Source: Paramecium tetraurelia (taxonomy: Eukaryota). Taken from it: a stretch of DNA of 64,000 bases. The position numbers and the translations under genes are program-made. Under the pieces are notes generated by a model, which ran no database searches, was not told where the DNA came from, and saw only the letters and a list, made by a program, of their open reading frames with translations. The stretch lies in NCBI GenBank assembly GCA_000165425.1, contig CT868027.1, positions 62,001-126,000 of the forward strand, written 5' to 3'. Shown one piece after another: positions 44,716 to 50,159 of this stretch (the stretch's first letter is position 1; every line of letters starts with the position of its first letter).

Positions 44716-45138
<423 letters not shown>

Positions 45139-45447
45139 TATTTATTACAGAAAATTATTATATAAGATTTCATAAATCTTTAAATTTAAATTGCTATTAT
45201 ATGAATATTCAATTGATTCCGTAAGAATAATATCAGTTGTTTGTCGATTCCAATTTGAATTCTTGATTCCCTCCTATTTTTATTAAATGTTTTATTGTTT
45301 AAAAATATAATATTTGATTAGATTAAGAACTATATATAGATATATTATTGAGCCTTAATTATAAATATATCGGAGAAAATTTGTATAAATTAATTGCCTA
45401 ATAACTTTATAATTTGTATATTAATTTTATAAGTAATATATCAGAAT

Positions 45448-47483
45448 ATGTATTTTGAATGTCCATGCTCCTTTAGAAAGGAATTAGAACAAGAAAATCA
45501 AATAATACAACACATAGATAATTGTGAACAATTTAATAGTGACAGTCCTCTATGCAATATGTACAAAAGGGGGAATGTTGATGAAGCACCAATTGAATAA
45601 CTAGTAACTTTTTTATGCGATCTCAAATTGCAGGTTGAAAGAATAGAAAATGTTTTAAGAAGACGTATAATAATATAAGCTTAATTTAGGTGGCTATAAC
45701 AAAAAGACAGCCTCAAATTAACAAGAATTAAATTTTGATCATTATGCTAAATACACCTCGAGTTCCAAAATCCGATCAAATACTTCTGGAGTGAAATAAA
45801 ATGGAATCACAGTCAAGATTGTTTCTCATAACATCTCAAGTGAAAAATAACAAGGCTAAATTGAATAAGAAAATCTAAACTAAAATAATTAGCTGCCTCC
45901 TACTCCTCCTCTATCACCTAGTCGATTTGAAGAGGAGAGAAACTAAAATACATTTACAGCTCATTAACCAACCATGTTAATTGAAGAATAACCAAAAACT
46001 AATGGCCAATAGCAATAACTATAAAAATAGCCATCAGATTAAAAGGTTGCTTGTGAAGCATGTAGAAAAGCCTTCTATTTCAATCAAGATTTTGAAAAAT
46101 TATGGTTTTTAGAACATTGTGGACATGTAATGTGTAAATTATGTATTCATCGATTGGCATAAGAAAAATTTGTTGAAAATGATGGAAGAATAATGTGCAA
46201 GGAAATCGGATGCATTGCAAGGATTACATACTTCGAATTAAAATAAATACTTGGAATTGATAAATTCAATGAATTGGATAAAAAATTAGCTCTTAAAAAT
46301 TAAAATATCGTTGAATGCATTAAATGCTAGTCTCAATTCTCTTTTGAAAAAGGTAATCCTAACGAATAAGTGAAAGATTAATAAGGTAAAAGTATAAGTG
46401 GTGATGCACTAGTAAATTATGCTAATAATCGATTTATTTGTAAATAATGTAAGACTGAACAATGTAGATAATGTAATTCAGTACCATTCCATATTGGAAT
46501 GACCTGCTAATAATATAAGACTAACTAATAAGCAAATAAATGTATTCTTTGTGATTTCCCTTGTGAAGGAAAGGTTTGTAATTAGGAAGATTGTTAAAAA
46601 AGAATTTAAAGATTATGCCAAAAAACCTTAGATTGTGGTCATGAGTGTAATGGAGTAAAGGGTGAAGAATGCTTATGCTTACGATGCTCAAAACAAGAAC
46701 CTGATGACTATTGCAATATGTGTTTCACTGAAGCCTTAAAGAGTGCTCCTTGCATTAAAACAGAATGTGGGCATATTTTTCATGAAGAATGCATAATGAA
46801 GAAACTAGATGCCAAATGGAATGGACCCAGAATTGTGTTTCAATATTGTACATGCCCTTTATGTAAGAAATGGTTGGATGTTAAACATAAGGAAATTTAA
46901 GCAAAGTTAAATGTGGCTTAATAATTAAAATTATAAATATAGGATTTGTGTACAGAAAGATTGGATATAGAAGGATTGAAATAAGCAAAAGAATTAACAG
47001 ATCCTAAAAGCTAGTATTATTAAAAACCTCATGAATTTGCGATGGATAAATTTTGTTTTTATGAATGTTTTAAATGTAAAAAGCCGTATTTTGGAGGAAT
47101 GAAAAATTGTTAAGCTGCTGCAGAGAATAATGACAGAGCATAATTCAATAAGGAAGACTTAATATGCTCTAGTTGCTGTCCAATCTCTTTTGAAGCTAAA
47201 TGTAATAAACATGGAGTTAAATATATCGAATTTAAATGTCGATTCTGTTGTTCTGTTGCTGTATGGTTTTGTGGGTAAGCATATTTTATATATAATTTTT
47301 AGAGGAACTACTCATTATTGTGAACCATGCCATAGTGGAAGAAATCCGAACATGAATAAACCTTGTCCAGGACAAGAAAAATGCCCATTGGGAGTCAATC
47401 ACAAACCAACTGGTTAGGAGAATGCATTAGGCTGTGCACTTTGTAGGTCTTAAAGAGTTGATGATATTCTTAAAAAAAACTGA
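45448..47483 (+). CDS. E3 ubiquitin ligase: RING1-IBR fused to MYCBP2/Highwire-type RING-Cys-relay module, 660 aa
   Basis: [89 protein letters not shown]; introns of 25 and 28 nt. Confidence 0.9.
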
Positions 47484-47760
47484 TGTATATAATTAATATT
47501 TTATGTAATAACTATTTCTTAACTATTCCATATAAAAGTATATTTCAGATCTATTTGTAAACTCCTTTAATAATATATGCAGTAGGAATTGTAGATTTAT
47601 AAAAATATTAGATAGGATGATTTTTGAAAAATTATTCATATATCTATATATATATACTATTTTTGAATTATCAACTACCCATAGATCAGAAATAAGAAAT
47701 TGAATGTACAAATACAGACTGATTCGTGTATGATTAATTCTAAAGTTTAATTAATTAAAT

Positions 47761-50159
47761 ATGCGTTCTAATTAACCAAAAGCCACAGAAAATGGGTCTA
47801 AGCCATCACAATATTTTGAGGGCAATAGAAAAGGAGAGGTAAATGAGTTGAAAATGTATCAATATATTCATTGAATATGTAGATTGGTTAAGAATACAAT
47901 AAATGAAAAGGATGACAAAAAGAAACGAGAAGTAGTTAAGAAGGTGATTGCTTACATGACATTGGGTAGTATTAGATTCTAAAATAGGAATCGATGTTTC
48001 TAAATTATTCCCAGAAATGTGCATGGCCTCTTATACTAATGACTTGGTATAAAAAAAGATGATATATTTATATCTGACAACATATGCAGAATAGAACAAG
48101 GATATGGCATTCATGGCCATTAGTACATTTCAGAAGGATTGCAAACACAATGATCCCAAAATTCGTGGATTTGCTTTGAGAAATTTGTGCTCTCTTAGAT
48201 TTAGTGGTGCAATAGAATTTTTAATGCCTGCAATAAAGGAGGCCTTATCAGATATTGATGCATATGTCAGAAAAACAGCTATAATGGGATGTGTAAAAGT
48301 TTTCTACATGCAACCAGAGTAATTAAATAATATTGAAGACCAATTATATAAAATGATTAGTGATAATGATCCTCTAGTAATTATAAATGCCATTCATGCA
48401 CTCAATGAAATTCTAGCACAAGAAGGTGGAATGGCATTATCAAAAAAGATGGTCGATTATTTATTAGGGAGGTTGAAAGAATTTAATGAATGGGGATAGG
48501 CCACCATTTTAGATGAGCTTTCCAAATACTCTCCAAAAGATGACAAGGAAATGTTCAACATTATGAATCTATTAGAAGAAAGATTGAAACATTCCTGTTC
48601 AGCAATTGTTTTAGGAGTTATCAAGGTTTTCATGAATTTTACTAAAAATAAACCTTAAATATATGAATAAGTCATTACCAGAGTCAAACTACCATTAGTC
48701 ACTTTAGCTTCTATTAGCGAAGGCAATTTTGAAATAATGTATACTATTTTGTGCCACATCAAATATATTGCATCCAAAGGGTACAATTCTGTATTTGCTT
48801 CCGATTACAAATCCTTTTATTGCAGAGTAGACGAACCCACCTACATTAAATTACTTAAACTTGAAATTCTATCATAAATCGCATGTGATTTTAATTTAGG
48901 AGACATGCTTAATGAACTAGGAGAATATGTTACTGACGTTGATCAAGAGATCTCTAAAAAGTCAATCTAAGCTTTAGGTGCTATTGCCATAAGACTACCT
49001 GATTTAGCAACTGCTATTGTAAAATAATTGTCATCCTTTGTAACTTTATAAGACTATATTACAAACGAAGTCATTCTAGCATTTAAAGACATTTTGAGAA
49101 AAGATCCAAAACACATTAAGGACTGTTTAGAAATTATCCAATCTGATAATATAACAGATTCAAATTCAAAAATTGCATTGATCTATATTCTTGGTCAATT
49201 TGGAAGCCAGATTCCTTTGGCTCCATATATTCTAGAAACATATATAGGGGCCCAGGAATCTGTAGAATTAAAGCATACTCTGCTTACATCTTGCTTGAAA
49301 GTGTTTTTTGTTAGAGCACCAGAAATGCACTAAGTCTTGGGTAAGCTATTTTATGTGATCATTAATAATGAGAACGAGGATATCGATTTGAAAGATAGGG
49401 CTGCATATTATTATAGAGCATTAAAATCAAATGCTAATGAAGTTAAGTAATTTTGGTAATATAACATTAAAGTCGATAAATTCCTTGAAGAAACTATCAT
49501 AAATAAAGAAGCTCTACTATTTGAATTTAATTCTTTGTCTGTCATTTATGAGAAAAATGTAAACAAATTCATAAAGCCAATTGAATACTTTAATAATCTT
49601 AGAAGCAAGGAGTTACAAGATCTTAATTAAGAATAGTCACAAACCCAAACAACTTAGGAATAGACCTCAGATGTTATAGAAAATCCATAATCATAACCTT
49701 ATGGCTAAACAAATGGCTAAACTAATGATCTCCTTGAAATTTCTGAATAACCTCAATAACAGATGTCTCTTAGTGTAGATAGTTTCATAGTCAACTTTGC
49801 AATTGATGCTGATCATTTTGAAAATATGTGGACCAATTTAAACGATGGGTAATCTGTCTATCCTTTATATTAGGGCAACGTTTACAAGGATGTTAGTGCG
49901 AAATGATATTGCCAACGAAACCTCAATTGAATAACTATTCAAGCAATACAGACTGTATAATATCGCTGCAGGAGAAGAAGAGAACGTATTGAAAATGTAT
50001 TTCTACGGGTCACATTAATGCTAAGTCTTTTTTGAATTTGAGATTAACAAGAATCTTAGTACAGTTATACTAAATACAAGATCGGAAATAGAGGATCAAG
50101 CATATTTAGCATCAAAATATGTTGAAGATTTTCTTAGATAAGTTCATTTAATTGAGTGA
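47761..50159 (+). CDS. AP4B1: Adaptor complex beta subunit, AP-4 beta-like
   Basis: KKVIAYMTLGIDVS, DPKIRGFALRNLCSLR (AP-4 type), FYCRVDEPTYIK, DLKDRAAYYYR; three introns give 775 codons. Confidence 0.85.

Follow-up and report, generated by a model that had tools for sequence, protein, structure and literature searches.

A Paramecium gene predicted to encode a compact ubiquitin ligase with an RBR-type RING1-IBR front end and a MYCBP2-type RING-Cys-relay module

Results

Overview of the protein

A stretch of 64,000 nucleotides (nt) from Paramecium tetraurelia (assembly GCA_000165425.1, contig CT868027.1, positions 62,001–126,000 of the forward strand; hereafter the window, numbered from its first letter) carries a three-exon gene at 45448–47483 on the plus strand, where all features described below also lie. 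Read in the ciliate nuclear code (table 6, in which TAA and TAG encode Gln), the gene specifies a protein of 660 amino acids (aa) that shares 89% identity with an unnamed Paramecium primaurelia protein (P0004, 657 aa). Sequence comparison and predicted fold support an architecture in which an RBR-type RING1 and an IBR domain are followed by a complete RING-Cys-relay (RCR) module of the type found in MYCBP2. We consider it likely that the protein belongs to the RCR class of transthiolating ubiquitin ligases and has a front end of the RBR type. The RING of the RCR module would dock the ubiquitin-conjugating enzyme (E2), and two cysteines would relay ubiquitin to the substrate. The gene is expressed as a single transcript, and proteins of the same layout form a large family.

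In the accessible text of three reviews, RCR catalysis is described for MYCBP2 only, an animal protein of roughly 510 kDa that has been connected with axon degeneration (PMC9120709, PMC9527308, PMC13061254). According to the accessible part of one of them, the RING-bound E2 of MYCBP2 loads a first Cys, ubiquitin is relayed over about 24 Å to a second Cys, and a Cys-His-Glu triad transfers it to Thr or Ser, not Lys, with a hydrophobic pocket taking the methyl group of Thr (PMC9527308).

The C-terminal RING-Cys-relay module

By sequence and predicted structure, the C-terminal half of the Paramecium protein is a complete MYCBP2-type RCR module. An earlier note on this DNA, made from the sequence alone, had pointed to a close match with the MYCBP2 C-terminus, and a phmmer comparison of the window's exon 2 with the MYCBP2 RCR fragment (PDB 5o6c) bears this out (E=1.1e-50). 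With the full-length ortholog, the match covers residues 403–648 and chain positions 5–260 of 5o6c (E=7.7e-63). The fold was predicted for the ortholog with AlphaFold2 from 123 aligned relatives, giving a mean predicted local distance difference test (pLDDT) score of 81.4 and a predicted template modelling score of 0.64. Block means were 94–98 for residues 191–540 and fell to 65 for residues 541–550, right after the first relay Cys. Compared with 5o6c and 6t7f, this model gave a Foldseek E value of 1.7e-21 with a template modelling score of 0.73 on the target, and a VIA-align Z of 18.1 over 233–236 aligned residues.

The module's RING (46712–46864) is of the RING-H2 type, scores 29.1 bits against Pfam zf-RING_5 (cut-off 27.9; residues 341–393 of the exon 2 translation, P0001) and aligns with the MYCBP2 RING in 5o6c. 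It is joined to the tandem-cysteine (TC) domain by a linker (46865–47065) that aligns to 5o6c and is predicted to be helical, with helices at residues 470–496 and 516–523 of the ortholog model. The TC domain itself (47066–47444) is split by an intron. It was delimited by phmmer against 5o6c and 6t7f and by the VIA-align match at Z 18.1, which takes in residues 402–649 of the ortholog model; the domain is not represented in Pfam. Both cysteines that the earlier note had named are present at the codons it gave and align with those of MYCBP2. The upstream relay Cys (FGGMKNC, codon 47108–47110) corresponds to human C4520, the Cys of FGGEARC at chain position 143 of 5o6c, and the downstream relay Cys (VWFC, codon 47270–47272) to human C4572, the Cys of VFFC at chain position 195. 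The His of CEPCH (47331–47333) aligns with the His of human CNACH. The Asp of KEDLIC (47156–47158) aligns with the Glu of human PRELIC, which we take to be the Glu of the catalytic triad.

Conservation was measured in an alignment of 148 proteins no longer than 1,300 aa. The upstream relay Cys is present in 146 of them, as is the downstream one, and the catalytic His in 142. The column of the presumed triad Glu holds Glu in 82, Asp in 45 and His in 11, the window protein having Asp. Directly after the downstream Cys, Trp is found in 103 relatives and Phe in 27. Human MYCBP2 has Phe here, which we assume to form part of the Thr pocket, and the window protein has Gly.

The similarity to MYCBP2/PAM/Highwire/RPM-1, the PHR proteins, thus extends over pre-RING (see below), RING-H2, helical linker and TC domain, with both relay cysteines and the His, at about 40% identity over about 250 residues. 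The proteins differ in the presumed triad position (Glu in MYCBP2, Asp here), in the residue after the downstream Cys (Phe against Gly) and, above all, in size, since the 660 aa of the Paramecium protein compare with about 3,600–4,000 aa for the PHR-type representatives in our set. Exons 1–3 of the Paramecium gene give no Pfam match to RCC1, PHR or SPRY at E<=1, unlike the PHR-type giants P0118, P0142 and P0157.

The N-terminal RING1-IBR unit

Upstream of the RCR module lie two further Cys-rich units, whose motifs as quoted in the earlier note are all in frame under the ciliate code. One is a C3HC4 RING of the RBR RING1 type (46052–46213; C-x2-C-x18-C-x-H-x2-C-x2-C-x18-C-x4-C, including CEAC..CGHVMCKLC..CKEIGC), and the other is an IBR domain (46316–46507; CIKC..CKQC..CRQC..PFHIGMTC). 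From sequence and modelled fold, we conclude that the two together are a true RBR relic.

The IBR domain passes the Pfam cut-off for PF01485 (24.3 bits) with the fragment alone (25.7 bits, E=1.2e-5) and with a 222-aa piece (24.8 bits); that of the full-length ortholog, at 21.4 bits, does not reach this value. The sequence of RING1 by itself scores weakly (Pfam E values of 0.002–0.02; E=0.027 for the TRIM32 RING), and its identity becomes clear with a family profile and with the predicted structure. When PDB sequences were searched with this profile, which was made from 50 diverse relatives, MYCBP2 came first (1.7e-106), followed by RBR ligases over profile positions 87–234, namely HOIL-1 (2.2e-11), ARIH2 (2.7e-9), RNF216 (2.1e-7), RNF144A RING1 (1.6e-6) and HOIP (RNF31; 4.3e-6). 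Structure comparison gave the same picture: with VIA-align, residues 186–351 of the ortholog model matched HOIL-1 277–420 at Z 10.5, RNF216 512–654 at Z 10.4, HOIP 697–849 at Z 8.5, ARIH2 at Z 8.0 and the RING1-IBR of Parkin (233–378) at Z about 7. Single RING1 domains were matched as well, that of HOIP at Z 8.4 and that of RNF144A at Z 6.8. Hence the proposal that the N-terminal Cys clusters are RING and IBR domains holds directly for the IBR, by its Pfam score, and for RING1 by family profile and predicted fold, its own sequence being a weak match.

The likeness to RBR ligases such as HOIL-1 (RBCK1), RNF216, HOIP and ARIH2 therefore resides in the RING1-helix-IBR unit, with profile E values from 2e-11 to 4e-6 and fold Z scores of 8–10.5. 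The difference lies in what follows. We detected no RING2 (Rcat): a single stretch matches the IBR model, and all RBR profile and fold alignments end where the IBR ends. The catalytic cysteines of the Paramecium protein are instead predicted to lie in the TC domain, about 200–250 residues downstream.

The pre-RING knuckle

The place where RBR ligases carry RING2 is taken, from eleven residues past the last IBR Cys, by a Cys-rich zinc knuckle that we call the pre-RING (46541–46687; ortholog residues 354–402; about 11 conserved Cys/His). Ten of its predicted ligand positions are Cys or His in 140–148 of the 148 aligned sequences, and the remaining one holds Cys in 113 sequences and His in 33. 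The pre-RING matches no Pfam family at E<=10. Folded alone (pLDDT 81.4), it matched one of 48,161 PDB representative chains at Z>=2, with a best Z of 2.2.

We considered RING2, a B-box and an NF-X1 finger as identities for this knuckle and set them aside, as it has no Pfam match, no RBR alignment extends into it and no fold match was obtained; it may still be a remodelled RING2. Three PHR-type giants that carry RCC1 and PHR domains by Pfam (P0118, P0142, P0157) match the family profile from the pre-RING on (positions 345–350) and match a pre-RING sub-profile at E values of 1.6e-9 to 9.7e-9. The unit shared with animal PHR proteins therefore comprises pre-RING, RING and TC domain, which places the module boundary upstream of the RCR RING. 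The earlier note had read the protein as an RBR ligase whose RING2 is replaced by the relay module. This is right in that no RING2 was detected and the RCR module is complete, but it had overlooked the conserved pre-RING between the IBR and the RCR RING.

Gene structure and expression

Exon 1 (45448–45664; 72 codons plus 1 nt) begins with the ATG at 45448 and encodes a helical N-terminal region. Intron 1 (45665–45689; 25 nt, GT..AG) was placed from the sequence and shifts the frame by +1; its removal joins two open frames and yields the protein of ortholog P0004. Exon 2 (45690–47274), defined by translation and RNA, starts with a low-complexity linker and continues through RING1, IBR, pre-RING, RCR RING and the linker helices into the TC domain. 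Intron 2 (47275–47302; 28 nt, GT..AG) splits the VWFCGGTTH motif between VWFC and GGTTH, and exon 3 (47303–47483) completes the TC domain, contributing the His of CEPCH, and ends in a TGA stop. In-frame TAA or TAG triplets, read as Gln, number 44 (1, 41 and 2 in exons 1, 2 and 3). Introns as short as 25 and 28 nt are typical of Paramecium. Both junctions give the annotated protein of P0004 (..LRRR/GY.. at intron 1 and ..VWFCGGTTH.. at intron 2). The length of 660 aa proposed in the earlier note is correct for this full gene model, but the gene starts, at 45448, outside the interval then assigned to it.

Three oligo-dT RNA-seq runs carrying the same species label were mapped to 45300–47600 and contributed 225, 269 and 198 reads of 58 nt. 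In all three runs the first mate of every read pair fell on the minus strand, which fits a transcript from the plus strand. Reads span about 45443–47470, with zero depth at 45300–45376 and 47533–47600, and no bin from 45454 to 47455 is empty in any of the three runs (lowest single-run bin, 0.09 at 46301–46377). Read 5' ends pile up at 45443, five bases ahead of the ATG. At intron 2, loose read ends at 47274 and 47302 bear the letters of the opposite exon edge, as expected if this intron is removed. At intron 1 the RNA depth dips, and no spliced read is listed among the 58-nt reads.

These data bear on whether a RING-IBR gene and a neighbouring RCR gene could have been misread as one. Exon 2 is a long frame in a code with a single stop codon and could easily be over-extended; the frame is in fact open upstream of the real start to 44957. 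Even so, such an artefact is hardly conceivable. Pooled over the three runs, RNA depth is nowhere zero in 45454–47455 and is zero in both flanks. The exon 2 translation shows neither a stop nor a gap between IBR and pre-RING, the same domain order is found within one protein in 141 of 157 relatives, and the AlphaFold2 model is confident across the IBR/pre-RING junction. With RNA covering the locus end to end on one strand and relatives sharing the layout, we conclude that there is one gene and not two.

Exon 1 also encodes a C-x-C...H-x3-C motif (FECPC..HIDNC, 45460–45525) that the Paramecium orthologs share, as does the paralog P0008 (50% identity). It may form a small zinc finger; the region has no Pfam match at E<=1 and a pLDDT of 59–77 in the model.

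Directly upstream of the ligase gene lies a histone H3 gene (140 aa, 44716–45138, plus strand; Pfam Histone E=4.6e-43). The ligase frame stays open upstream across it, and the raw open reading frame in table 6 (44957–47323) is misleading for this reason. Downstream, a gene for an adaptin-type protein occupies 48017–49906 on the plus strand (Adaptin_N E=1.5e-77, profile positions 53–522 of 524); its true start is probably further upstream, with an intron.

Family distribution and phylogeny

Searching 1.84 billion cluster representatives with a profile gave 3,017 matches at E<=1e-3, 1,936 at E<=1e-10 and 714 at E<=1e-30. We classified the layout of 157 proteins, consisting of the 150 best matches (P0007 among them) and seven other named relatives, with sub-profiles (hidden Markov models) built from an alignment of Paramecium and EukProt sequences. 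IBR and RCR occur together in 141 and the IBR is absent from 16. Four of these 16, short proteins with the pre-RING at their start, may be fragmentary, and the remaining 12 are longer forms that include the PHR-type giants. Nine IBR-less proteins were scanned with Pfam, which found a B-box upstream of the pre-RING in three (P0142, P0121, P0139) and an IBR in none. Such PHR-type giants and shorter IBR-less relatives differ from the Paramecium protein in having a B-box where it has the IBR.

RING1 ligands are present in 111–124 of the 148 aligned proteins, the remainder being mostly gaps. For the IBR, six of the eight ligand columns are kept in 143–145 of 148 (the first in 140), and the first CxxC pair does not fall cleanly into one column. 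Among 50 relatives scanned with Pfam, the IBR was found at E<=1e-3 in 23, C2 domains in five, RanBP2-type zinc fingers in two (including P0009) and a ubiquitin-like domain in one. The three added domain types are N-terminal in these relatives, and the last two resemble the domain order of HOIL-1, the best RBR match. The title of PMC6613137 presents HOIL-1 as an ester-forming ligase.

The named relatives are Paramecium proteins together with one EukProt and one JGI protein, and two RBRs were listed besides. In the Atlas, Ciliophora was the commonest phylum, from 35, 8 and 3 members with known phylum, and the known taxa of the IBR-RCR family are mostly ciliates. The expectation that similar protist proteins might already be in databases proved correct: the Paramecium orthologs and paralogs P0004–P0008 and P0011 (50–89% identity, same layout) are annotated as 'RING-type domain-containing protein', and these entries carry no functional annotation.

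Two of these proteins depart from the common pattern. The P. octaurelia ortholog P0007 (644 aa) has Ser in place of the upstream relay Cys (FGGIKNSQ) and CLGKIH in place of CGGTTH, and it ends early; the whole-genome duplications of Paramecium may have left it as a duplicate that is inactive or in decay. P0011 from P. primaurelia (1065 aa) repeats part of the module, running RING1-IBR-preRING-RING and then a second, partial IBR-preRING-RING-TC. Either the gene was duplicated internally, or the annotation has fused two tandem genes.

For the RCR part we computed a quick, unrooted FastTree. Its 153 rows exclude P0011, which was left out deliberately, and three more that length or score filters removed. 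Ten of the 12 long IBR-less forms cluster, next to an IBR-bearing protein, with a support of 13 for the group and 89 for its parent node. As the tree is unrooted and this support is 13, loss of RING1-IBR in the animal line versus its gain elsewhere is not settled by it, and neither is the fusion that the word 'chimeric' in the earlier note implies.

Discussion

In the mechanism that we favor, the E2~ubiquitin conjugate would dock on the RCR RING (46712–46864), and ubiquitin would move as a thioester onto the upstream Cys (47108–47110), which is predicted to sit in a flexible loop. It would then be relayed to the downstream Cys (47270–47272) and finally transferred to a nucleophile of the substrate, a step in which the conserved His (47331–47333) and the acidic Asp (47156–47158) would assist. 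By analogy with MYCBP2, the acceptor would probably be a hydroxyl (Ser/Thr or other), giving an ester. RING1-IBR (46052–46507) would most likely have an accessory role, as a platform for ubiquitin or for a second, open-state E2~ubiquitin, or as a regulator of the relay.

The choice of docking site turns on the residues through which RINGs contact E2. RING-E2 contact positions are a hydrophobic residue two positions after the first zinc ligand (C1+2) and a Pro directly after the seventh (C7+1). The RCR RING has Met at C1+2, where 130 of 148 proteins have Ile, and the Pro at C7+1 that is found in 126 of 148. RING1 of the window protein has Ala and Lys at these positions and that of P0004 has Gly and Gln. 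Because the RCR RING keeps the contact residues and RING1 here lacks them, the RCR RING is favored as the dock, and RING1-IBR is probably not the main one in the Paramecium protein. The suggestion in the earlier note that both RINGs bind E2 is accordingly borne out, as far as contact residues go, for the RCR RING, while for RING1 it is left uncertain.

Several points weigh against the picture drawn above. The zinc ligands of RING1 and IBR are strongly conserved, which speaks for an important role, possibly in E2 binding, so that the RCR RING is not secure as the main dock, and the contact-residue argument draws on general knowledge of RINGs. At the position aligned with the triad Glu the protein has Asp. 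With Gly after the downstream Cys, where 103 of 148 relatives have Trp, a preference for Thr, or even for a hydroxyl, cannot be read off. Lastly, the Ser that replaces the upstream Cys in P0007 indicates that not every copy need be active.

The first of these points could be taken to mean that ubiquitin enters in RBR fashion, with RING1-IBR receiving an open-state, Cys-reactive E2~ubiquitin and passing ubiquitin to the upstream Cys, which would stand in for the Cys of RING2, while the RCR RING serves as a structural element or an alternative entry. The nearest solved relatives of the front end are indeed RBR transthiolation modules (HOIL-1 and RNF216 in E2-ubiquitin complexes), most relatives keep the RING1 and IBR ligands, and among the sequences that have a RING1, 69 carry Leu, Ile or Val at C1+2 and 86 carry Pro at C7+1. 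We nonetheless regard this route as unlikely for the Paramecium protein, given the Ala/Gly and Lys/Gln at the contact positions of RING1 in this protein and its orthologs, against the Met/Ile and Pro retained by an RCR RING that shares about half of its residues with the MYCBP2 RING. Animal PHR proteins, moreover, work without RING1-IBR, according to the accessible text of PMC9527308. A pseudo-ligase that is inactive and retained for binding alone would account for P0007, which has lost the upstream Cys and carries a changed GTTH motif; for the window copy, in which every catalytic and zinc-binding residue checked is retained, we judge it very improbable.

How the relay ends is a separate matter. 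Attack by a nucleophile on ubiquitin at the end of the relay is well supported by the conserved Cys, His and acidic residue, whereas ester chemistry would follow from the analogy with MYCBP2 only. A MYCBP2-like relay could also serve an amine (a lysine or the N-terminus) or a non-protein hydroxyl in place of Ser/Thr. Such an acceptor is suggested by the Gly that stands where human MYCBP2 has Phe and most relatives have Trp and by the Asp at the aligned acidic position, and the C2 lipid-binding domains in five of 50 relatives hint at membrane-proximal targets. Set against this are the retention of Cys, His and acid as a group and the absence of lysine activity from MYCBP2 in the accessible text of PMC9527308, and we hold the alternative acceptor to be rather doubtful. 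A relay from the RCR RING through both cysteines, with a hydroxyl as the probable acceptor, is thus the reading that we retain.

The arrangement also invites a tentative evolutionary scenario, to which we give a minority chance. The RCR class may be a derived branch of the RBR ligases, in which RING2 was remodelled to the pre-RING while the RING and TC domain were gained. The compact RING1-IBR-RCR form would then be ancestral and MYCBP2 a late branch in which a B-box took the place of the lost RING1-IBR. If true, this would link two classes of transthiolating ligases that are now held separate.

Among the titles and abstract openings covered by our literature searches, none dealt with a protist RCR protein or an RBR-RCR hybrid, although the supplements of the original RCR papers may mention non-animal homologs. 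No functional description turned up either, in agreement with the earlier note, which knew of none. The size of MYCBP2 makes the whole enzyme hard to handle. The IBR-RCR proteins would be small, tractable full-length enzymes in which relay loading and the choice between ester and amide could be followed, and the family makes a shared origin of RCR and RBR ligases testable. A large family of proteins of 500–800 aa that combine the relay with an RBR front end suggests that the relay also exists outside the animal PHR proteins and, by analogy with MYCBP2, would predict non-lysine ubiquitination in ciliates.

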